From positions 1 through 29,058 of the forward strand of contig JBGSMD010000018.1 in assembly GCA_041740355.1 (NCBI GenBank): a stretch of 29,058 bases of DNA, given 5' to 3'. The translations under genes were made by a program, and so were the position numbers. Under the pieces are notes generated by a model that made no database searches, was not told the origin of the DNA, and was given only the letters and a program-made list of their open reading frames with translations. The stretch comes from Bdellovibrionota bacterium. GTDB lineage: Bacteria > Bdellovibrionota_C > UBA2361 > CALJRW01. This document shows positions 11,176 to 26,977 of this stretch, in pieces; position 1 is the stretch's first letter, and each line of letters begins with the position of its first letter.

Positions 11176-11404
11176 TATAGTAGTGACAAAAAATAATTTG
11201 CTGCCTGCCTAGCCGAAGCTTCAGCGAAGGCTGGTTAGTAAATTGCACAGAGTCATTACGGCTAAAGCAAATTTTGCTTTCCTTTCAGGCCAAAGCAAAA
11301 GCTACGGCGGATATCCAAGATTGCATAGCTAAAAACAACATAAATAGTGAGTCCAAGCAAAATCGTTTGTCTTATATAGTAATTTATTTTTTGGACTCAC
11401 TATA
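11176..11404. mobile_element. MITE copy 2 (229 bp, TATAG...CTATA, TA target), carrying a REP-like insertion
   Basis: Imperfect TIRs tatagtagtgacaaaaaataatttg / gtaatttattttttggactcactata; homologous to 1-139 and 12797-12991. Confidence 0.88.
11204..11234. repeat. GC-rich REP-like palindrome nested in the MITE
   Basis: cctgcctagccgaagcttcagcgaaggctgg, absent at the equivalent position of copy 3. Confidence 0.7.
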
Positions 11405-12038
11405 ATAATTCATTCAAAGTGTTACTTACCTCACTCGCAGTCGGACGTTTTCTAGGAGAAGTTGATAAACAACTCTCCACTAAATCCTTTAACTTTTTAG
11501 GATAACGAGTACTGCTAAGTAGTGCATTGCTACTTCTTGCCCCTGTAATTGTGTAAAAGATGACTGCTCCAAGTGAATAAATGTCTGATTTCATGCAGGC
11601 AAAGGGACGTTGTCCAAGGTACTTTTCGGGGGCAATAAAAAACTTAGATCCCCTGAGGCTCCTTTGATGCTTTAACCCTACTCCAATTTGAAATGCATCC
11701 TGAAAATCAATAATCACAGGAGCTCGCTTTCTTCCACGTAGCATAATATTACGATCTGACAACTCATTATGCACAATCTCATGTTCATGTAATACAGTTA
11801 AAACTGAAGCTACTCCTAGTGAAATCTCTAGACACTTAGAATACTTTCGTATTTGTCTTTCCCTAAAATCATATAAAGTTAAACCTCGTATTTTCTCTAA
11901 AATGATTTTCCCATCGCGATCATTAAAACCAATTATTTTTGGCAATCCGGAATGAGCAGGTAGTTGATCTAAAATTCTTTTTTCATTTTTATATAGGTTT
12001 CTATCTTGATGGGGAGTCTTAATGAAAACATCTGTCAT
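11400..12038 (-). CDS. Hanks-type Ser/Thr kinase-like protein with degenerate motifs (possible pseudokinase)
   Basis: VFIK, NE (helix C), VHNELSDRNIML, IIDFQ, IAPE, SDIYSLG, RKRP. Confidence 0.82.
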   Translation of the reverse strand: MTDVFIKTPHQDRNLYKNEKRILDQLPAHSGLPKIIGFNDRDGKIILEKIRGLTLYDFRERQIRKYSKCLEISLGVASVLTVLHEHEIVHNELSDRNIMLRGRKRAPVIIDFQDAFQIGVGLKHQRSLRGSKFFIAPEKYLGQRPFACMKSDIYSLGAVIFYTITGARSSNALLSSTRYPKKLKDLVESCLSTSPRKRPTASEVSNTLNELL

Positions 12039-12151: not shown

Positions 12152-12568
12152 CTAATTAATATCTAGGATCTCCATTTCTACCTGCTGAACTCCAGAAATC
12201 GCCAGCTTTGTTGCAGCGGCATTGGAAATATCTAATTCTCGTCCACGAATAAATGGTCCCCGATCGTTGATTTTTACTATTACAATTTTTGAGTTTTTTG
12301 GATTTTTCACTTTAACCATCGTACCGAAAGGTAATGTCTTGTGTGCACAGGTCAGCTTGCTCGGATCATAAATCTCTCCGCTAGCAGTGCGATTCCCCGC
12401 AAGTTTTGTGCTGTAATGTGAAGTGACTACTAGTTGAGGAGAACTTTCGATTGTAGCAATAATTGGTGTAACGCCTGCTGGTTTAGGCATAACAGAGCAA
12501 GAATAAAAAAAGAGTGAATTAATCGCAATTAATGCAAAGCTTCTTTTGGTATTAATCAAACCGGACAT
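12152..12568 (-). CDS. rlpA: Septal ring lytic transglycosylase RlpA-family lipoprotein (DPBB domain)
   Basis: RTASGEIYD, AHKTLPFGT, INDRGPF, RELDIS; lipobox FYSC favours start 12568 over 12637. Confidence 0.9.
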   Translation of the reverse strand: MSGLINTKRSFALIAINSLFFYSCSVMPKPAGVTPIIATIESSPQLVVTSHYSTKLAGNRTASGEIYDPSKLTCAHKTLPFGTMVKVKNPKNSKIVIVKINDRGPFIRGRELDISNAAATKLAISGVQQVEMEILDIN

Positions 12569-12796
12569 AAATATTACAAGAAAAAATAAAAAACCTAGAA
12601 GATCCGTATTTTTACTTGTTGAAATTACTTTTGACAAATAATGTAGTGAAATAAGGTTTAAATGCTAATAAATTGCTTATTTTTAATATTTTTGATGTCC
12701 CTAGTCTCGTACTTTAATCAAGTCGGAAAAGGGATCGAATTTATCCTGATAATTTTTAAACTGATAACTTCTTCAATTACATTGAAAGAATTATTA

Positions 12797-14267: not shown

Positions 14268-16088
14268 ATGGGTTCACGACAAGATCCAACTACTAAACTG
14301 GACCATGATCCACCTATCAAATTGTATCGGCTGGGAATTCGGACAGGAATTAAAGTTGATCCACGCACCGCCAAGGTGATTAGAACTCTTGCCGCCGTTA
14401 TTGTTGTTGGTAGTACTACCTATGCAGGAATTAAAGCAATTAATCAGGGAATGGAGAAACTGGCAAATTTATTAGAGCCATCAGCTGCTAAGGTCACCGA
14501 ATTGAAACAGCAAAAACTAATTGATGCTCCAAGGCATAATTATCAAGTAGATTTTAAAGCTATTAAATTACAAGGCAAGACTCCAACAGGTGATTCAATA
14601 CTGATGTGCGGGTTAAAACATCAAGGTCATAATCTAGAATTAATTACCGGTGTTCATTTCATGGAAATGAGCAATGAAGCAAGACGTTATGGAATTGACT
14701 TCAAGATTACTGCGGTTCAAGGATCGTTAAATAATGCTCTACAAATTGAAGGTAATGAGGCAATTGCTTGGGTTAAACAACAAGGTCTTCTTTTTGGATT
14801 TACTTCATTAAAGGATAAAGCTGGGCAAGAGGTACAAAAAGGATTGTTTGAATTTAATCGTGATCAGGCAACTAAAGATTACTTAAGTCTAGCAGATAAT
14901 TTAAGACCTACTCATGCCAAAGGATCTGTTTTTGGTATTCTTCAACAACTGAAAATGCCAGATAGTGGGATAACAATTCCATTTGAGAATAAAGATTTTA
15001 CGGACTACTTTACTTCTGCCGGTCTTGTGCATGGCTTTGTTCCACAAAACTTTAAAGTTAACCAACCAGAGACAAGTTATACCTACGTTTATGACTCTAA
15101 ATTAGCACATAAACTTTTATCAGATTTAAGCAGTGAAGGAGTAAATTCATTTAAATTTTGTAAACTTCAAGGCACACTTTGGAATACAATTGAAAATCAA
15201 TACCCATACTTGTCCTCGCAACAGGTTGGAAGAACTGTTGACTTAGCACTTAAAATAAATAAATTGCTAGATCCTAGTTTTAATCCCACTAAATTACAAT
15301 TAAAATCACAGCTAGTTATTCCCGATCTTCAATCTTCTGAAACGCAACTGCTCTTATCCAAAGCAGTTCCAACTAATCAAATTGATCAAGTACCTACAGT
15401 TACTAATGCTAAAAAGCATTCCAAAGTTACAGAAGTAATGAATGCTGCTAATCTGTCCAAACTTGCAGTAACAGATGATGGATTATATTTAATTAAAACT
15501 TTCGAAGCATTTCGAGAAGCTCGTTATCTCTGCCAAGGTGGGGTTCCAACTATTGGCTATGGTTGCACAAGGCCTAATATCGTTAATGGTCCGGAATTAA
15601 GTGAGCCTCAAGCCGTTGCCGTACTCAGTCAGGATTTAGATAAGCACGTGAAACGAGTTAAGCAAATTGTTAAAGACAAAGTTCTGGCAGAACTTACTCC
15701 TAATCAATTTGCAGCTCTGGTATCTTTTGATTTTAATACTGGTGCACTTGATAAATCGACACTCTGTGCTGAACTTAATAAAGGAAACATGAACATTGGA
15801 GCCTATCTTTGTCTCTTTAATAAGGTTCGTGAAAATGGATCTGGTGAGCATGTTTTTAGTAAAGGTTTATTTCGAAGAAGGTTATCTGAGATGCTTCTTT
15901 ATTATGGTGCTAAAGGAGCAGATTCCTACATTACACCAGATTCTTACGATCAATGGGCGAAAGAGTTAGCTTTTGACCCTGATGTAAAATTTAAAGATAA
16001 AAATCAAGAAAAAGTATTTGTTGCTTCGATGATTGGAAAAGCTCAACAAGAAAGAATTAAAAATTTAGAGCAGTTAGTTAAAAATTAA
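14268..16088 (+). CDS. Membrane-anchored multidomain GH24 (phage-type) lysozyme with a LysM-like domain
   Basis: N-terminal TM; GTLW...N..P.KL...QLVIP (LysM-like); LIKTFE-x8-C-x5-TIGYG, NQFAALVSF.FNTG, GLFRRR.SE. Confidence 0.82.
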   Translation: MGSRQDPTTKLDHDPPIKLYRLGIRTGIKVDPRTAKVIRTLAAVIVVGSTTYAGIKAINQGMEKLANLLEPSAAKVTELKQQKLIDAPRHNYQVDFKAIKLQGKTPTGDSILMCGLKHQGHNLELITGVHFMEMSNEARRYGIDFKITAVQGSLNNALQIEGNEAIAWVKQQGLLFGFTSLKDKAGQEVQKGLFEFNRDQATKDYLSLADNLRPTHAKGSVFGILQQLKMPDSGITIPFENKDFTDYFTSAGLVHGFVPQNFKVNQPETSYTYVYDSKLAHKLLSDLSSEGVNSFKFCKLQGTLWNTIENQYPYLSSQQVGRTVDLALKINKLLDPSFNPTKLQLKSQLVIPDLQSSETQLLLSKAVPTNQIDQVPTVTNAKKHSKVTEVMNAANLSKLAVTDDGLYLIKTFEAFREARYLCQGGVPTIGYGCTRPNIVNGPELSEPQAVAVLSQDLDKHVKRVKQIVKDKVLAELTPNQFAALVSFDFNTGALDKSTLCAELNKGNMNIGAYLCLFNKVRENGSGEHVFSKGLFRRRLSEMLLYYGAKGADSYITPDSYDQWAKELAFDPDVKFKDKNQEKVFVASMIGKAQQERIKNLEQLVKN

Positions 16089-19931: not shown

Positions 19932-20168
19932 ATGAATACACTTTTTCAAAAAAACAATTCGATTACGGCATCGTTTTCAATTCGTCCTGATTTTGCATCA
20001 CCGGTTGCTGATCCCGAAGCTCCGGCAACACCAAGTCCAGCAAGGCCTGCGCCAACTCCCGCCCAACCTTCGGAACCAGCTCCGCTCACCCCTGCGCCAA
20101 CAACTCTGCCAGCTCCATTCCCACCGTTTGTCAGGCCTAAAGAAGGAGAGGAAGTTGAAACATGTTAG
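19932..20168 (+). CDS. Small proline-rich protein
   Basis: 78 aa, ATG 16 bp after the ankyrin stop; fills the gap up to the convergent gene; PAP/PTP repeats. Confidence 0.6.
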   Translation: MNTLFQKNNSITASFSIRPDFASPVADPEAPATPSPARPAPTPAQPSEPAPLTPAPTTLPAPFPPFVRPKEGEEVETC

Positions 20169-20171
20169 CTT

Positions 20172-21074
20172 TTATCTCTTTAACATTTCACATTTAACAT
20201 CTAGAGCAATCGGATAAGACTGCATCCATTTCATTAGTCGCCATCTTGATCCATAAGATTTAACTCTACACTGGGATGGAACATTTGGGACAACACCAGC
20301 AACATCATCAGCAATAAAGGGAAGACCTTTGGTAACGATACTCCAAATAAAATGGACTAGGCTTGGTTTAACTCTAAAATACACGGCGTCTTCTGGTGGG
20401 CATTCGACTTTATCTTCACAACCATTAATTGACCAATAGTTATCTTCAGCACTTAATTCATTTTTGCCATTTAAATAAACTGTCTCTACTCTTATTTTAC
20501 CACCATGAAGTAACATGTTGGCCGCAATTCTTACGGAATCATAAACTGGCTCATAGCAGGTGGCATAGGAAATATCCTTTAGATAAGGAACTCGGAGTGG
20601 CCAAGCGAATACCAAAAAAGTAAGACAGATGAAAACTCCAGCTCGACCTCTGGAGAATCTAGCCAACTCTTTTTCAGATTCTGCTTCATCGTCAGTATTT
20701 ATTGAATCTGTAACTTCAGGTGATTTCTGACCAAATGTTTTAAAAAAGTTGCTAACTTGAAAGTAAATTTCCTTATAAAGTTTTCTTTCTGGATAGCAAA
20801 ACCAACGCCAAAGTCTTTTATAGAATTGCCAAATATTTTTTAGGAATGGTAATATTCGTATTAGCGGTCGAATAATCTTTGGTGCAATCCAGAGAAACCC
20901 GTCTTTGATATGTAAAATTGTTTTTGCAACTAGACTTAAATCTCGCTGAAGTTCCGCAACACTAAAATCTGAATCTTCTACAGGTACATTTTTTCTTTTT
21001 TTTGTTTGAATTCCTAAGCGCTTAATCCGTTTTAGTAAGTCATCACCATTTTGTTCGTTATTATTGTCTGACAT
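20172..21074 (-). CDS. Membrane protein with C-terminal Cys-containing, DUF1523-like domain (operon gene 3)
   Basis: TM AGVFICLTFLVFAWP; C-terminal V.SYG.R....YP motif; 3-bp gap from the ATPase gene. Confidence 0.75.
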   Translation of the reverse strand: MSDNNNEQNGDDLLKRIKRLGIQTKKRKNVPVEDSDFSVAELQRDLSLVAKTILHIKDGFLWIAPKIIRPLIRILPFLKNIWQFYKRLWRWFCYPERKLYKEIYFQVSNFFKTFGQKSPEVTDSINTDDEAESEKELARFSRGRAGVFICLTFLVFAWPLRVPYLKDISYATCYEPVYDSVRIAANMLLHGGKIRVETVYLNGKNELSAEDNYWSINGCEDKVECPPEDAVYFRVKPSLVHFIWSIVTKGLPFIADDVAGVVPNVPSQCRVKSYGSRWRLMKWMQSYPIALDVKCEMLKR

Positions 21075-21077
21075 AGC

Positions 21078-23363
21078 TTAGACTATGGTTGCACTGGCCA
21101 AAGAGTTTGGCAAACTAGTTTTTGATTTCGGAGGATCAATTTCGACTTTTTGAGTTTGCTGGTTAAATCTTAAAGCCATTACCCCTGTCGCTTCTGGCGT
21201 GCGAAGCATTGTATCGGCAATCGTTGGTTTGATAATATCGGCAATATATCCAGTGACACCCCTAGCACCGTTGACCGGTTCATATGTCGCTTGACACATT
21301 GCCAGTAAATCTGATGTTGGCATTTCCACAAAAAGTTCAGGTGATTTAAAATGAATCATAGAGTTAAGTTTCGCAAGTTCTCGCTGAGCAATTTTTTCAA
21401 TTACAGGTAAGGCAAGTTTACTAAAGCAAACAATATTTCTTCGCCCATTAAATCGGTTTAAGAATTCTGGACGATACTGGTTAGCAAGATCTTTCATAGC
21501 ATTAGCTTCAGCATCTTCCGGAGTTAAATCTTCATTTAAGAAGTGAAGGGTCCCAATGTTTGTTGTCATAATAATAACAGTTTCATGAAATGATACTGTT
21601 AATCCACGATTATCTGTTAAACGAGCATCGTCAAGAATTTGTAAAAAAACATTGAAGATATCCGGATGTGCTTTCTCAATTTCATCAAAAAGAATAATTC
21701 GATTTGGATTCTTGCGTAGAGCATTGGTTAAGATCCCACCTGCTTCGTAGCCTTCATACCCGGGAGGTGCCCCAATTAATTTAGCAACTGCATGCTTTTC
21801 CATATACTCCGACATATCAAATCGTAGCAACGCTCGCTCATCATCCATCAAGGCAACTGTTAGTGCTTTAGCGATTTCTGTTTTACCAACACCAGAAGGA
21901 CCTAAAAATAAAAAACTAGCTTGAGGTTTATTGGGATCTTGTAATCCTGCTCTTGCCACGCAAACAGCATTGGATAACTTTTCTACCGCCTGATCTTGTC
22001 CAAATACTCGACTAGCTAAATTGTCTTTTAATCCAAGCAATTTAACGCGCTCATCTTGAGTTAATTTGCTTACTGGAATTCCAGAGATATGACTAAATTC
22101 TAATAGTACATGTTCAGCAGTCAAAATTAGCCCCGAATTAATTTTGCTGGATACTTGGTCAAACTTAGCTTTGTTTTCATCAACTTCACTTTGGAATCTC
22201 TGAATCTCTAATTTTATCTCACGTATTTCTGAAGAATCAAATCCGGCATTGATTACGGAGAAAGATCCCGGATGTTCGACTGCTGCTGACTTATTTGCTT
22301 TCAGTTGTTCTCTGTTTTCTTGTTCTTTTAATTGTTGTTCTATAATTGCTTCTTCTAACTCACGAATTGACTGCTCGCCTGTGCGTTGATCTTGAGATAA
22401 TTTACGAATTTCTTGCTGTAGCTTTTCCCAATTATTTTTAATGTCATGAATTTTTTCTTCTGTCTCTGTTGCTAATTTTTGTAACTCTGTGGGACTTAAT
22501 TTAGCATATTCCTTGTCAGCCTTCCCGGTTTTTATTGCGGAATTAAGCTTTGTTAATTGTTTCTCAACTGCCGCCAACTCAGGAGATTTAGCATGGGCTT
22601 TTTGACGATAAGTTGTGAGTGCTCGGTCTAGTAAAGTTAAACTACGTTCTGGTTGAGCACGACTAAGACCTAAATCAGAAACACGGTATTTACTAGTTTG
22701 TAGTATAGCTGATTTAATTGCCTCTTCTGAGATTTTTATTCCATGATGCTGTTGTAAATGCTCAGCTGATGATTTAATAATTAAAAGTAAATCATCTGGT
22801 GCAGGCTCTTGAATATCGAGTAAGGTAAAGATCTCCCGCATATCAGAATGACATTTAAGTACAATCTCTAAATCATCATCTCTGGATTCAAAAATAGCTT
22901 GAAATTTTTTATTGCGAATCTCACGCATCAAAGCATTAATTAGATGTGTCGAACCACTATTTCGCGCGGCTTCTACAAAATTTTTGGTATCTTCAATTAA
23001 TAAAATTGTTTCAGGCGAACGAGAAAGCGAGCGTAATGCTTTTTGAAAACCTTCATTTATTTGAACGGGATCCCCTGATGCAAACAAACCATCAGTGTCT
23101 AACCAATAAAGTCGTTTATTAACGATATCAAAGGGAGCAGTTGGATCGGCTTTCATTGCCTGTAAACCTAAGCAAATGGCAGTGCAACCAACCCCTCCAG
23201 CACCTACAAGCAAAACTGAATTTGCACTATTCCTCATTAAGATCGCGGAAAGGCGTTGTAATTCTGCACTTCTACCAACAAGTTTAAAATCAGGTCTTAG
23301 TGCTAAAGTGTCACTTGCTCTTATTAAATAATCTGCACTATGGGAAATTCTTGGTTTACTCAT
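21078..23363 (-). CDS. Atypical ClpB/Hsp100-like AAA+ ATPase (no N-domain, degenerate NBD1, long coiled-coil middle domain)
   Basis: NBD2 intact: GPSGVGKT, DMSEY, GAPPGYEGY, LFDEIEKAH, RPEFLNR, GAR. NBD1 degenerate: GAGGVGCT and LLIED. Confidence 0.92.
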   Translation of the reverse strand: MSKPRISHSADYLIRASDTLALRPDFKLVGRSAELQRLSAILMRNSANSVLLVGAGGVGCTAICLGLQAMKADPTAPFDIVNKRLYWLDTDGLFASGDPVQINEGFQKALRSLSRSPETILLIEDTKNFVEAARNSGSTHLINALMREIRNKKFQAIFESRDDDLEIVLKCHSDMREIFTLLDIQEPAPDDLLLIIKSSAEHLQQHHGIKISEEAIKSAILQTSKYRVSDLGLSRAQPERSLTLLDRALTTYRQKAHAKSPELAAVEKQLTKLNSAIKTGKADKEYAKLSPTELQKLATETEEKIHDIKNNWEKLQQEIRKLSQDQRTGEQSIRELEEAIIEQQLKEQENREQLKANKSAAVEHPGSFSVINAGFDSSEIREIKLEIQRFQSEVDENKAKFDQVSSKINSGLILTAEHVLLEFSHISGIPVSKLTQDERVKLLGLKDNLASRVFGQDQAVEKLSNAVCVARAGLQDPNKPQASFLFLGPSGVGKTEIAKALTVALMDDERALLRFDMSEYMEKHAVAKLIGAPPGYEGYEAGGILTNALRKNPNRIILFDEIEKAHPDIFNVFLQILDDARLTDNRGLTVSFHETVIIMTTNIGTLHFLNEDLTPEDAEANAMKDLANQYRPEFLNRFNGRRNIVCFSKLALPVIEKIAQRELAKLNSMIHFKSPELFVEMPTSDLLAMCQATYEPVNGARGVTGYIADIIKPTIADTMLRTPEATGVMALRFNQQTQKVEIDPPKSKTSLPNSLASATIV

Positions 23364-23389
23364 GATTAAAGTTATAGAAAACTACTAGA

Positions 23390-25114
23390 CTAAAGATTGA
23401 ATCCACCCATACCGCCACCTGTGTTCCCATCTTTCGGTTTTTCAGCTTCTTCCTTTTTAGGTGCGCCATCAACTTCAGCACCGACATCAGCATTAATACC
23501 ATAAGAGGCATTAACATCACGCTGAATTTCCTTAGTAACTTCCTCTAGCCCTCCAATTCTTTCTTTAACAGCACGAACATTCTCGCGAGTTATATCAGAC
23601 GCTTTTCGAATAACTTGTCCCATAGCTGCTAAATCATCAATTGCTTTAGTTAAGGAATCACTCTGATCTTTTATTCCAGAAGCACGTCGCAGTGCATCCT
23701 TCGCAATTGTGCGATTAGTTTTGTCGTTCATTAAGCTTAAAGACATGCTGGTCATTTCACTGGCTTCATTTAAAGCAGCCCCAGAAAGGGCATCAAGGGT
23801 TGTAGCTAAACGCTGCGCAACTCCTGCGACACCAGAACTCTGAATTCCACGAGTCTTGGCCATTTGTTGTTGATTACTATCTTTCATTGATTTGATTTGG
23901 AAGCTAGCATTTGATAATTCAGCAAGCGTTGTTCCGGTATCCACACTTACAGTATCAAGCGCTGTAATATGTTCTTCTAATGAGCGTAATTGCTTTTCTT
24001 TTTGCATTTTCGCGATGGCACTTTCTTCTTTCTCAACATCTTGAGTTAGTGTTCCTCTTAAGTTTTGATTATTACCCTCGGCATCTTTTTCTGCTTCTCG
24101 TAGAACAGTATAAATACTTTCCATACTATCGTTCATTTCAGCCACACCTTCGATATGCTGATTTCGACCCGATAGATGCTTCATTACTTCACCAACTCGT
24201 TTTTCAGTTGTATCTACAAAGTTATTAGCCGCATTTACTAAGTCTTGTTGACGTTCTTTATGCTGATCACTGCTAATATCCAGAAGACTTTTTAAAGTAG
24301 CTTTTTGTTTTAACAAATCAGTATACTTACTTTCTAAAGGACGATTTGAAAGCGTATTAATACTTTCAATGTCCGCTTGTAAGTCAAGACGTTCTTGTTC
24401 CGCTTTTACTAAATCTACTTGTTCAATTTGAGCAATTGCTTGGCGTGCTTCTTGTGTCACACCACCAAGTCCAAAAAAACTTTTTTCTTCAGCTAAACTG
24501 GATTTGCGTTTATTTAATTTATAAATTTGATCTTCTAACTCAGACAGTTTCGATTCTTGTTCTTGTTTTAATTTCAAGCGTTTCTCTTCTTCTGCCTGAT
24601 CATCTTTAATTTCTTTGAAAATATCAAAAATAACATCTCCCCCAGCCATTCTGAGATCAAAAACTGCATCAACAATATCTGTTAATGGTTGCATCTTGCC
24701 GTCAAAGTCCATCAAAGCTGAATTGATATCATCATAAACCATTTTCAGTTCAGAAAAGGCTTCGGTGTCAGTCAAAGAAATTAATTTCTGTGACATCTCT
24801 TTTCTTTGTAACTGTAACCATTCTTTAAATAATTCCAACTCGGCTAATTTCTCACGATTAGCTTCTTTAGATTCTTCTGCCGAAAAAGCTAATACTTTTG
24901 CCACCGCTTCTTTCTTCTGTTCTGGACTAAGTTCAGGATTCCAAAGAATTTTCTTAAATGTATTTGCTTCAATTTTAGCAAATCTTTCATCAACGGGCGC
25001 AGCTTTAGTTTCAGTAACACCAACTGTTCTGGTATTACGCTTGCCCTGTATATTTTCAGCCTGATCTACAAGATCACTTAACTTAGTAGATTTTTTTGAT
25101 GATGATGAAGACAT
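23390..25114 (-). CDS. Long coiled-coil protein, TelA/toxic-anion-resistance-like (operon gene 1)
   Basis: All-helical heptad pattern; C-terminal QIKSMKDSNQQ..K...MNDKTNRTIAKDA parallels TelA; AAGGA RBS upstream. Confidence 0.7.
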   Translation of the reverse strand: MSSSSSKKSTKLSDLVDQAENIQGKRNTRTVGVTETKAAPVDERFAKIEANTFKKILWNPELSPEQKKEAVAKVLAFSAEESKEANREKLAELELFKEWLQLQRKEMSQKLISLTDTEAFSELKMVYDDINSALMDFDGKMQPLTDIVDAVFDLRMAGGDVIFDIFKEIKDDQAEEEKRLKLKQEQESKLSELEDQIYKLNKRKSSLAEEKSFFGLGGVTQEARQAIAQIEQVDLVKAEQERLDLQADIESINTLSNRPLESKYTDLLKQKATLKSLLDISSDQHKERQQDLVNAANNFVDTTEKRVGEVMKHLSGRNQHIEGVAEMNDSMESIYTVLREAEKDAEGNNQNLRGTLTQDVEKEESAIAKMQKEKQLRSLEEHITALDTVSVDTGTTLAELSNASFQIKSMKDSNQQQMAKTRGIQSSGVAGVAQRLATTLDALSGAALNEASEMTSMSLSLMNDKTNRTIAKDALRRASGIKDQSDSLTKAIDDLAAMGQVIRKASDITRENVRAVKERIGGLEEVTKEIQRDVNASYGINADVGAEVDGAPKKEEAEKPKDGNTGGGMGGFNL

Positions 25115-25392
25115 AGAATCCTTTTTAAATATTTTAACTCTTAACTTTTAGAGGGTTTACTCAAAGCAAGTTCTTAAATTCGAAAATAAAATTTTGAACA
25201 TTTGTTATGATAACATTTTGAACCAATTATATTCAGGTAATAGTGATTGTTTAGAATTTCAGTAACAGCTTTTGAAATGCAATGCTTAAAAACTGAATTT
25301 AAGCACCAAACATAGTAAATACCTAAGATAATTAAAGATTCTAGCAAAACCACGCGGTTCTACAAGGATTATTATTTAATAATAAAGGGAAA

Positions 25393-25617
25393 CTATTCTA
25401 GCTTCCATTTTATTTGAAACTCAATTTCCTGAGAATCCAGATCCCGTTCATGCTCAATATTAAAAGTCGCACTATCAGGCACATAAATACGCTCTCCAGC
25501 AATTTGGATGTTAAAGTTCTTACCCGCTTCAATTGAATCTGCAAAACGGCGCAATTTAGCAACAAATTCCTTTTTACTGTAGGACTTTTCGATATCACGA
25601 GTTTTTTTCTTAAGCAT
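25393..25617 (-). CDS. Amphi-Trp domain-containing protein
   Basis: RDIEK.Y..EFVAKLRR.AD.IE.G..F.IQIAGERIYVP...FNIEHER....EIEFQIKW. Confidence 0.9.
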   Translation of the reverse strand: MLKKKTRDIEKSYSKKEFVAKLRRFADSIEAGKNFNIQIAGERIYVPDSATFNIEHERDLDSQEIEFQIKWKLE

Positions 25618-25819: not shown

Positions 25820-26977
25820 ATGAATACAAAAATTCATTTATCTATAATTTTTTCTTTTATTACATCTTTATCTTTAACTTCTAGCCTTTTTGCATATGAA
25901 GGTGATATTCCTGTTCAGATTAGCGAAGGAAGTCCATTTTACTGTTTAGCTAATGCTGAATATGGAAATGGTTTGGCAAAGTTTGATGGAACAAGGTTAG
26001 CAGAGATTGGCCTTAATAATAAAATCGGAAGACTACTTAATTTAATTAGAAATATTACAAGAGAGATAGTAGCCGCTCGGGAAGATGGGAACTCAACATT
26101 AGTTCTACGCTTAAAATCAAATCGTATAAAGAAAAAAAATCTACGCAATATTTTAATAGAATGTCAAAATCAGTCAGGGATCTTTGATCCACTTGCCGCC
26201 ACTCCTGATGTCCCAACTCAACCAGAGACTCCCATCGATCCAGATACAGGCGAAACAGCTTGTTCGATTATTGGAAATAATAACTCCTTAAATCTTAAAC
26301 TTTATCGAAGTTTTCCTAAGATTATTAATGGATCTGCCTGCGTAGTTGGAAATAGCCCAACAGTGGAATTAGAATTATTTGTTGCTGGACGTAATGATGG
26401 TTTCTGCACTGGGACTGTAGTAAATCCAACTACAGTAATCACTGCTGCTCATTGTGCTCAAGGAATAAGTTCGATTAAAATTTATTATGGATCAGGGGTA
26501 ATTACTAGCAGTTCTATTCACGTCCACCCTGATTATGAATCTACTAATGATCTACAAGATCATGATGTAGCGGTAATCAGAACAAGCTCTGAGATTCCAA
26601 CACGTACTGTAAATATTCTCTCCGGAAATAATTTAACAGTAAATGAATTGGGATTTATTGGTGGATATGGCCTAAGCAATGGTTCCAATAATAATAGTAG
26701 TGGAACTCTTCGAGCCGCTACTGTTTTACTAGATACCGTAGCTGGAAATTCAATTGGCACTGTTTACACAGCAGGCAATACTCATGGAAATACTTGTAGT
26801 GGAGATTCTGGTGGTCCACTACTAGTTAAAAGAAATGGTTCTTGGGTTTTAGCCGGAGTAACATCTAATGGTGTTTCCAGGTTTTGTACTCCAACAGACT
26901 TTTCTTACTATGCCAATTTAACTAGTACTAGTAATAGGAATTTCATTAATGGAATTGTTCCTAATTTGATAAATTAA
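25820..26977 (+). CDS. Secreted trypsin-like (S1) serine protease with N-terminal pro-region
   Basis: Signal peptide; IING mature N-terminus; catalytic triad TAAHC, HDVAV, GDSGGP. Confidence 0.93.
   Translation: MNTKIHLSIIFSFITSLSLTSSLFAYEGDIPVQISEGSPFYCLANAEYGNGLAKFDGTRLAEIGLNNKIGRLLNLIRNITREIVAAREDGNSTLVLRLKSNRIKKKNLRNILIECQNQSGIFDPLAATPDVPTQPETPIDPDTGETACSIIGNNNSLNLKLYRSFPKIINGSACVVGNSPTVELELFVAGRNDGFCTGTVVNPTTVITAAHCAQGISSIKIYYGSGVITSSSIHVHPDYESTNDLQDHDVAVIRTSSEIPTRTVNILSGNNLTVNELGFIGGYGLSNGSNNNSSGTLRAATVLLDTVAGNSIGTVYTAGNTHGNTCSGDSGGPLLVKRNGSWVLAGVTSNGVSRFCTPTDFSYYANLTSTSNRNFINGIVPNLIN

Follow-up and report, generated by a model that had tools for sequence, protein, structure and literature searches.

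How should a ClpB-like protein be read when the first of its two ATPase domains lacks the residues of a working motor: as a gene in decay, as an error in the sequence, or as a machine of a different kind? The question is raised by gene B on contig JBGSMD010000018.1 of a Bdellovibrionota bacterium (assembly GCA_041740355.1). The stretch of DNA that was analysed, referred to here as the window, comprises positions 1 to 29,058 of this contig. Gene B (21078..23363) encodes a 761-aa ClpB-like Hsp100, with an apparently dead first nucleotide-binding domain (NBD1) and an apparently live second one (NBD2). This assignment draws on the open reading frame (ORF), its motifs, Pfam and NCBIfam profiles, an alignment of homologues and a tree. 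B is the middle gene of a self-contained cassette, A-B-C, in which it is preceded by the gene of an all-helical protein (A) and followed by that of a small membrane protein (C). All three genes, with every feature described for them below, are located on the minus strand.

Domain structure of B

The frame of gene B is unbroken over 761 codons and is read from 23363 down to 21078. An earlier note on this DNA, made from the letters alone, had described an intact ORF of this length at this position. Its product was said to start almost directly at NBD1 without an N-domain, to have NBD1 altered at Walker A (K to C), Walker B (IED rather than DE), the GAKYRG pore loop and the ALERRF region, to carry a coiled-coil middle domain of about 160 aa, and to retain an NBD2 intact save for GYEG in place of GYVG, with no IGF loop for docking to ClpP. 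Each of these points is borne out by the comparisons that follow, and all of the motif strings are present when re-read at their own coordinates. The minus strand, the partner genes and the link to phages had been missed.

The LVGR motif occupies residues 28-31. No match to the Clp_N domain was found in B with Pfam, and the match to the ClpB profile begins at profile position 175, which corresponds to residue 28 of the protein. The Pfam domains of B are AAA_lid_9 (residues 191-289), AAA_2 (479-639; 8.6e-57) and ClpB_D2-small (654-721; 1.2e-05). The best solved relative, from a phmmer search against all solved chains, is the ClpB of T. thermophilus (1qvr), and the residue-by-residue equivalences given here are taken from that alignment.

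Within NBD1, the degenerate Walker A motif reads GAGGVGCT (residues 54-61; 23181..23204), where GKT of ClpB is replaced by GCT with Cys60 standing for the Lys. The Walker B motif is likewise degenerate, reading ILLIED (22989..23006), in which IED replaces IDE of ClpB and the order DE becomes ED. Opposite the pore loop AGAKYRGEFE of ClpB, B has ASGD-PVQINE and the Tyr is gone. The sensor-1 sequence GATT is replaced by FESR, and the Arg-finger region ALERRF by DMREIF (22827-22844), with both Arg residues lost. The stretch LFASGDPVQINE of NBD1 was also re-read as a motif string at its coordinates, 23052-23087.

The middle region (residues about 251-415, ~165 aa; 22119..22613) is predicted to be a coiled coil. 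B can be aligned with the M-domain stretch of 1qvr through residue 342, and coiled-coil profiles of the SMC/JetC type match over residues 239-411. NBD2 is canonical in its Walker A motif GPSGVGKT (21879..21902), in its Walker B sequence LFDEIEKA, of which IILFDE marks the feature at 21681..21698, and in its sensor-2 sequence GAR. Its pore loop reads GYEG (21750..21761), where the canonical Hsp100 sequence is GYVG. In the alignment of B to the ClpC of S. aureus (6em9), a 7-residue gap falls opposite the ClpC stretch ...rfagfggssd..., which we take to be the ClpP-docking loop. B would therefore lack a loop of the IGF type.

Conserved loss in NBD1

The homologue set consists of the best 120 relatives listed from a search of 5.8 billion proteins; these are 711-786 aa in length and 54-66% identical. 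The Walker A Lys of NBD1 is present in none of them, the site being occupied by C in 101, G in 11, L in 5 and A in 3. The catalytic Glu is similarly absent from all 120: position 125 is Asp throughout, and position 124 is D in 65, E in 54 and N in one. The residues expected of a working NBD2, by comparison, are invariant across the whole set (K494, T495, D560, E561, Y536, E537, R637 and R701; 120/120). The P-loop residues G54, G56, G57 and G59 of NBD1, together with A62 (23178-23204), are also kept in every homologue.

The mean pairwise identity, calculated from every second of the 120 homologues, is 0.65 for NBD1; NBD2 reaches 0.77, and the middle region 0.37. A count over all 120 gives 41 invariant columns out of 223 in NBD1. 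The middle region is the least conserved part of the protein and ranges from 127 to 179 aa. Comparison of these homologues shows an NBD1 that has lost the residues for ATP hydrolysis or substrate grip, yet is kept under purifying selection. This is not the pattern of decay, since the loss is uniform in 120/120 homologues, the NBD2 motifs are kept in the same 120 and NBD1 remains 65% identical.

The earlier note had proposed a selected single-motor Hsp100 subfamily, in which one ring is a scaffold and the substrate is specific, and had held that close homologues with canonical GKT and DE motifs would point instead to a strain-specific mutation or a sequencing error. No such homologue occurs among the 120, and the proposal of a selected subfamily is supported by the joint conservation of the NBD1 loss and of the NBD2 motifs, with NBD1 at an identity of 0.65. 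The note had also asked whether GVGCT and IED are themselves conserved: the loss of the Lys and of the Glu is universal, but the Cys is found in 101 of 120, with G, L or A in the others.

A more distant subfamily from the window's own phylum has I or V at the Lys site (six sequences), and C, I or R is found there in viral copies of B. The site thus tolerates C, G, L, A, I, V and R, and Lys was never seen. What matters at this position would be the loss of the Lys and not the Cys itself, since distant and viral copies place I, V, R or C there. One viral copy (L165, on the same contig as L106) reads GPGGVGRSA, with Arg at the Lys site, and has DD at Walker B. Two further viral copies have Ile at the site.

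The NBD2 pore loop was also compared between loci. GYVG is found in 70 of 78 canonical Hsp100 loci. Among the 21 loci of the B family, GYEG occurs in 16, GFEG in one and GYDG in one, the other three being misses of the search pattern. An acidic residue in the NBD2 pore loop, GY[ED]G, is a mark of the B family.

Linkage and spread of the cassette

The cassette is read on the minus strand in the order A (25114..23390), B and C (21074..20172). The gap between A and B is 26 bases, and that between B and C is 3 bases. The first sample of loci comprised 19 found through A or B, from two genomes and 17 metagenome contigs. B follows A in all 16 loci with DNA after A, and the remaining three contigs end within A. 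Of the 11 loci with room for it, 10 have a homologous C ORF (254-291 aa) after B. The window's phylum was represented by 124 genomes, nine of which carry A, the window's own included; B lies directly downstream of A in the eight others (8/8), one of which has the cassette only as a broken remnant. In a scan of contigs with the B alignment, ordinary Hsp100s were mostly met, and two of the 80 loci kept were members of the family.

A scan of viral contigs with the single sequence of the N-terminal half of B gave no match. A scan with an alignment of the same half then gave nine viral loci, two of which were contigs already seen. A is followed by B in all nine, and C is present in eight.

The genes that flank the cassette vary between loci and include metabolic genes, regulators and, once, ParA/RepB. 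In this last case, a metagenome locus (L092:957-3199), ParA-like and RepB/ParB-like partition genes are the immediate upstream neighbours of the cassette, and a location on a plasmid is possible. A search of A against 72,556 plasmid records gave no match. At another metagenome locus (L097:4174-5211), the eleventh of those with room for C in the first sample, the third gene is not C and encodes an unrelated 345-aa DUF3137 membrane protein (PF11335, E 3e-33).

Only one of 40 close relatives showed a trace of the cassette, and this in a broken state. The remnant (L087/L122, genome G015 of the same order) retains the first ~165 residues of A, and its B is in at least two out-of-frame pieces. The cassette can therefore be lost by decay in relatives. 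The named bacterial carriers of B belong to Pseudomonadota (Vibrio, Motilimonas, Pokkaliibacter, a Micavibrio metagenome-assembled genome and a Thiodiazotropha metagenome-assembled genome); the window's phylum is a different and small one. The cassette moves horizontally; its carriers are large phages and a minority of the bacteria, drawn from two phyla or more. Within the window, the guanine-plus-cytosine fraction of the cassette (20001-25000) is 0.37-0.39, compared with 0.32-0.35 in the flanks; this mild shift is consistent with horizontal arrival.

Copies in large phages

Only the Agrobacterium jumbo phage Atu_ph07 (two records of one genome) was matched in a tblastn search of A against 50,697 phage records. 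In this phage, A is followed by a gene annotated as ‘ClpB protein’ (AUZ95251.1), of 661 aa and 44% identical to B. Its NBD1 reads GPGGVGCS and LIVEN, and about 50 residues of the middle region are missing. A homologue of C (hhalign probability 99.95%, E 1e-38) is located after three small ORFs. The same cassette is also carried by IMG/VR contigs of 40-247 kb.

The phage gene has been treated in the literature as a chaperone of the general kind. In the available sections of PMC6102473, the Atu_ph07 copy is discussed as a ClpB chaperone that acts against aggregates, and in those of PMC7824862, AUZ95251.1 appears under the name ‘ClpA’ and is taken for a translocase or an aid to assembly, as a possibility. 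Neither the silent NBD1 nor the partner genes are mentioned where these available sections of PMC6102473 and PMC7824862 treat the gene.

The partner proteins A and C

Gene A (23390..25114), the first gene of the cassette, encodes a protein of 574 aa, homologues of which lie directly upstream of B elsewhere. No family for A was found in Pfam, NCBIfam, PADLOC or PHROGs. A search of the A profile against 1.84 billion representatives gave 347 clusters at E <= 0.001. The 150 clusters listed are mostly of about 530-615 aa, with about twenty shorter and fragment-like. An AlphaFold2 (AF2) model of A was made from 47 sequences, namely 46 of the 150 listed representatives and the window's own. The model is all-helical, with a predicted local distance difference test score (pLDDT) of 73.7 and a predicted template modelling score (pTM) of 0.56. 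Its long helices extend over residues 83-470 and include 159-208, 221-257, 282-357 and 366-470, and confidence is low for residues 1-13, 22-33 and 465-574. The tails, of about 30-45 residues, are predicted in this model to be disordered, and the N-terminal one is basic. On this modelling, A has an elongated, wholly helical body, and its ends are disordered and charged.

The tip of the long helical hairpin in A, EEKSFFGLGGVT (residues 209-220; 24455..24490), contains an FG.G motif and was located from the alignment and the AF2 model. The tip is non-helical in the model and lies between helices 159-208 and 221-257. F214, G215 and G217 are invariant in 14 sequences, and the conserved tip reads KSFFGxGG.

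Structural searches with the model gave no firm relative. No match at E <= 0.001 was found by Foldseek against the Protein Data Bank (PDB). With VIA-align, for which the noise bar for helical bundles is about Z 13, all of the matches of A fall below that bar: a designed helical bundle (Z 12.0), Mrs2/CorA (about 10), and the ClyA-type toxins XaxA (Z 10.6, 252 residues aligned at a root-mean-square deviation of 7.8), AhlC (Z 9.9) and Cry6Aa (Z 9.4). The hairpins of Snf7/CHMP gave Z 9.2-9.8, over residues about 170-260 only. In BFVD, the model matched an unnamed 364-aa phage protein (E 1.4e-5) and two phage tellurite/toxic-anion resistance proteins, with probabilities of 1.00 and 0.92, E 0.01 and template modelling scores by target of 0.37 and 0.19. 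In the Atlas, the nearest named cluster to the A homologue P0126 bears the name TelA with a score of 0.88, which is a lead only. The sequence profiles of A and C gave only coiled-coil noise against PDB chains, a cluster look-up of 10 homologues of A and C gave no usable name, and no internal repeat was found in A by hhalign among four segments (probabilities <= 2.4%).

Two named families were tried as relatives of A by sequence: TelA was rejected at this level, and PspA gained no support. There was no Pfam match to TelA (PF05816) at E <= 1 in 47 members of A. The hhalign probabilities against TelA were 0.1% (five canonical ORFs), 2.7% (12 divergent ORFs) and 6.5% (57 merged, being 17 locus ORFs and every third of 120 homologues, against 132 A sequences), while the control of TelA against TelA gave 97.7%. 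PspA, represented by 20 ORFs of the window's phylum, gave a probability of 6.8%. Neither Pfam PspA nor Pfam TelA was matched in the window's own genome. TelA may resemble A in being all-helical and of similar architecture, but A is about 170 aa longer and the profiles of the two do not match. To our knowledge, no TelA structure has been solved. None of TelA, PspA and the pore-forming toxins is a proven relative of A, and the TelA-like architecture is to be taken only as a lead.

Gene C (20172..21074), identified from its ORF and from the reading of the junction with B, starts 3 bases past the B stop and encodes a membrane protein of 300 aa. Like A, it could be assigned to no family of Pfam, NCBIfam, PADLOC or PHROGs. 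Members of the C family are about 260-300 aa long, with a predicted anatomy of one membrane helix and an outer domain that resembles an oligonucleotide/oligosaccharide-binding (OB) fold and carries four Cys. A conserved N-terminal helix (consensus DDLLRRAERL) is followed by further helices. The transmembrane helix is predicted at residues 144-165 (20580..20645), where the top 19-residue Kyte-Doolittle window scores 1.81, and corresponds to a helix at 142-160 in the model.

The C-terminal beta domain (residues 193-300; 20175..20498) is modelled by AF2 with a pLDDT of about 90 and contains four near-invariant Cys, C219, C225, C269 and C295, each at least 90% conserved in 39 sequences. VIA-align gave Z 6.6-8.5 with 70-92 residues aligned (50 rows), and the best Foldseek E value was 0.006. 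Those of the 50 rows that were recognised are OB-fold proteins: RPA, SSB, PriB, the B subunits of AB5 toxins and anticodon domains of tRNA synthetases. These matches, of middling strength, are consistent with an OB-fold-like domain. The four conserved Cys would fit a periplasmic domain with disulfide bonds.

Place among Hsp100 and other AAA+ proteins

The top NCBIfam family for B is ClpB (TIGR03346, an equivalog), with a score of 441 bits (residues 28-723), where the cut-off is 1232.1. The scores for ClpA (394.9 bits, cut-off 993.15) and ClpV/TssH (TIGR03345; 343.7 bits, cut-off 884.95) are also far under their cut-offs. The same genome encodes a true ClpB (1295.9 bits) and a true ClpA (1002.4 bits), both above these curated cut-offs. 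Judged by these profile scores, B is therefore not the housekeeping enzyme of its genome. ClpV above its cut-off was found in none of 41 genomes of the window's class.

A quick maximum-likelihood tree of 42 rows was built with a midpoint root. The 19 family rows were 15 of the 120 homologues and four sequences from the loci. The 23 reference Hsp100s were 22 rows that comprise the genome's ClpB and sequences of the contig-scan loci, labelled by their best NCBIfam score, and one row for the genome's ClpA; by type, these were six ClpB, five ClpA, nine ClpC-like and three ClpE/L-like proteins. All 19 family rows fall on one side of a branch with a Shimodaira-Hasegawa-like approximate likelihood ratio test (SH-aLRT) value of 100, apart from all of the reference types, with branch lengths of 2.31 and 1.92 up to the midpoint root. 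Two phage copies of B are nested within the family. The B family forms a distinct Hsp100 clade in this tree. The earlier note had called for a phylogeny against ClpA, ClpB, ClpC, ClpV and ClpG: the separation stands against ClpA, ClpB, ClpC-like and ClpE/L-like proteins, and the tree holds no ClpV or ClpG/K rows.

The nearest comparison for B is with ClpB/Hsp104, with which it shares the order of NBD1, lid, inserted coiled-coil middle region (predicted in B), NBD2 and D2-small, as well as the absence of a ClpP-docking loop. B differs from these proteins in that it has no N-domain and its NBD1 lacks the Walker A Lys, the Walker B Glu, the pore Tyr, sensor-1 and the Arg fingers. Its pore loop is GYEG and not GYVG, its score is far under the ClpB cut-off, it belongs to a separate clade and it is accompanied by two linked partner genes.

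ClpV (TssH) of type VI secretion is dedicated to the contracted sheath and not to general proteostasis. An Hsp100 with one dedicated client may serve as the working model for B and A. Unlike ClpV, which has a client-binding N-domain and two live rings, B has neither an N-domain nor a live NBD1 ring, and it scores only 343.7 bits on the ClpV profile.

Silent rings are also found outside the Hsp100 clade. Pex1/Pex6 and NSF are two-ring AAA+ proteins with one silent ring, and Vps4 is a single ring that works with ESCRT-III. In the silent-ring machines, the task of keeping the ring intact or of docking partners falls to one tier, and the threading of a helical, membrane-associated client to the other. 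These are classical-clade AAA proteins of eukaryotes and archaea, whereas B belongs to the Hsp100 clade. The available sections of PMC11237479 describe, under a heading on classical AAA+ ATPases, a bacterial PspA with a neighbouring protein that has two AAA+ domains, the N-terminal one inactive. That protein could be a member of the B family.

Reduced Hsp100s are already known in eukaryotes. The available text on human CLPB (Skd3) gives it one module of the NBD2 type behind ankyrin repeats, and it matches the NBD2 of B at E 1e-41. The ATPase motifs of SMXL proteins of plants are degenerate, and the SMXL/D53 proteins are described in the available text as ClpB-like. CLPB/Skd3 and SMXL/D53 resemble B as Hsp100 derivatives in which part of the double motor has been given up, but they are eukaryotic and of other domain make-up. 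We know of no partners like A or C for either. Within bacteria, PADLOC matches of B were found to DolB (Dodola, PDLC03838; E 9e-25) and PDC-M37B (E 2e-32), which are ClpB-like ATPases of defence or candidate-defence systems. The matches of the two cover residues 317-609 and 432-605 of B, that of DolB being limited to 432-605 and not full-length, and they fall over the shared NBD2 and the region before it. Neither A nor C matches any PADLOC model, that of a DolA partner included. In the full-text papers searched, which exclude subscription journals, no description was found of a bacterial or phage Hsp100 that combines a silenced NBD1 with partners such as A and C.

Proposed mechanism and alternative explanations

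The best explanation, to which a probability of roughly 0.55 may be given, is that the NBD2 ring of B is a motor by which A is unfolded or remodelled at the inner membrane, where C provides the anchor. By what is known of its family, B would assemble as a ClpB-type hexamer in which the NBD1 tier is a structural or docking ring and the NBD2 tier, with the ATPase activity of the family, the sole motor. A specific client is likely, because two partner genes stay with B across phyla and phages. This client would be A, probably entering by one of its disordered tails of ~30-45 residues. By Hsp100 geometry, tails of this length are long enough to cross a passive upper ring. The basic N-terminal tail of A would suit the acidic GYEG pore loop, and the outcome would be the unfolding of A or the dismantling of its assemblies. 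The site of action would be the cytoplasmic face of the inner membrane, where C would act as a tether or a sensor and expose its Cys-rich domain to the periplasm. The purpose could be protection of the envelope, superinfection exclusion or another role in conflict; a conflict or envelope-protection role is suggested because the spread of the cassette is patchy, mobile and linked to phages.

Several points weigh against this explanation. The tree is a quick one, without rows for ClpV, ClpG/K or ClpX. The invariant P-loop glycines leave room for binding without hydrolysis, so that the dead NBD1 may still hold nucleotide or another (phosphate) ligand and a pure scaffold may be too simple a description. 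No fold relative of A was recognised, and for this reason ‘polymer’ or ‘assembly’, as applied to A, is a guess. Finally, C may be an accessory part, since it is replaced by the DUF3137 protein at one locus, separated from B by three ORFs in Atu_ph07 and missing from one of nine viral loci.

Several other explanations have been considered. That B is a ClpB paralogue in decay, or that its sequence reflects a mutation of one strain or an error of sequencing, has next to no credence left: a relative with a fragmented remnant of A and B shows that the cassette can be lost, but the 761-codon frame of B is unbroken, its NBD1 is kept at 65% identity, and the same replacements in 120/120 homologues, beside invariant NBD2 motifs, already refute the idea. 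It is also improbable that the role of B is that of a general chaperone, a disaggregase or a helper of virion assembly, A and C being unrelated neighbours. The published treatment of the Atu_ph07 copy as an anti-aggregate ‘ClpB protein’ (PMC6102473, available sections) or as a ‘ClpA’ translocase or assembly aid (PMC7824862, available sections) speaks for such a role, as do an NBD2 and a D2-small domain that are fully ClpB-like. A chaperone of this kind is hard to reconcile with the missing substrate-binding N-domain, NBD1 motor and NBD1 pore loop, with a host genome that already has ClpB and ClpA, with a rare and patchy occurrence, and with the strict linkage to A in 16/16, 8/8 and 9/9 loci.

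A tentative alternative, with odds well short of even, is that the cassette is a conflict module for anti-phage defence or superinfection exclusion, in which A would act on the membrane as an effector or form a barrier beneath it, and B would arm, disarm or recycle A. This overlaps with remodelling of A by B at the inner membrane and differs from it mainly in purpose. Its patchy and horizontally moved distribution, its carriage by large phages, the ParA/RepB partition genes beside one copy (L092) and the broken remnant in a relative all agree with a conflict module. The A model has wide matches to ClyA-type pore formers (XaxA, AhlC and Cry6Aa), but these are weak and lie below the noise bar for helical bundles. 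Proteins of the TelA type are leads for A through the Atlas score of 0.88 and the BFVD rows; in the available sections of PMC7824862, sub-membrane structures of TelA are proposed to act against incoming phage, and the Ter-system genes of jumbo phages to serve competition, yet hhalign places A against TelA at 0.1-6.5%, with a control of 97.7%. PADLOC recognised no known defence system at the cassette: it has no family for A or C, and the matches of B to DolB and PDC-M37B are confined to the shared NBD2. The flanks contain ordinary metabolic and regulatory genes and not defence islands. A more elaborate and rather doubtful conjecture would make A-B-C the bacterial and phage counterpart, built from different parts, of the ESCRT-III/Vps4 or SNARE/NSF principle. 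A would form a helical sub-membrane assembly, B would be its silent-ring Hsp100 dismantler with the NBD1 P-loop as a ligand switch, and C would report on the periplasm through its disulfide-bonded OB domain, the envelope being reshaped or shielded by large phages and some bacteria, for instance against a superinfecting phage.

Surroundings of the cassette in the window

Upstream of A, a promoter-like site (TAAACA, a spacer of 16 nt and TATAAT; 25226..25253, minus strand) was identified by consensus match only, with 10 of 12 positions. Counts of promoter- and terminator-like sites in the region are not above the expectation from shuffled sequence. The sequencing runs listed for this DNA were four DNA runs of a single study, with none of RNA. 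A 74-aa Amphi-Trp ORF (PF20068, E 1.1e-7) is located at 25393-25617 on the minus strand, also upstream of A, and is not found beside the cassette in other loci. A terminator-like hairpin follows this ORF at 25388-25406.

The further neighbours include several genes of envelope-active or secreted type, which encode a trypsin-like protease (25820-26977), a DPBB lytic transglycosylase (12152-12637), a protein-kinase-like product (11400-12038) and a 606-aa protein with a phage-lysozyme domain (14268-16088). None of these four recurs beside the cassette at other loci.

Implications

The Hsp100 proteins are textbook double motors, and the B clade, which is widespread and keeps its silenced first ring conserved, is a natural test of what such a ring does apart from hydrolysis. 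The clade also points to a client system that has yet to be characterised. As A and C are without annotation, working out the function of one member would allow three families to be named at once. The presence of the cassette in jumbo phages, where it has so far been read as a generic chaperone, suggests an overlooked role at the envelope in the relationship between phage and host.

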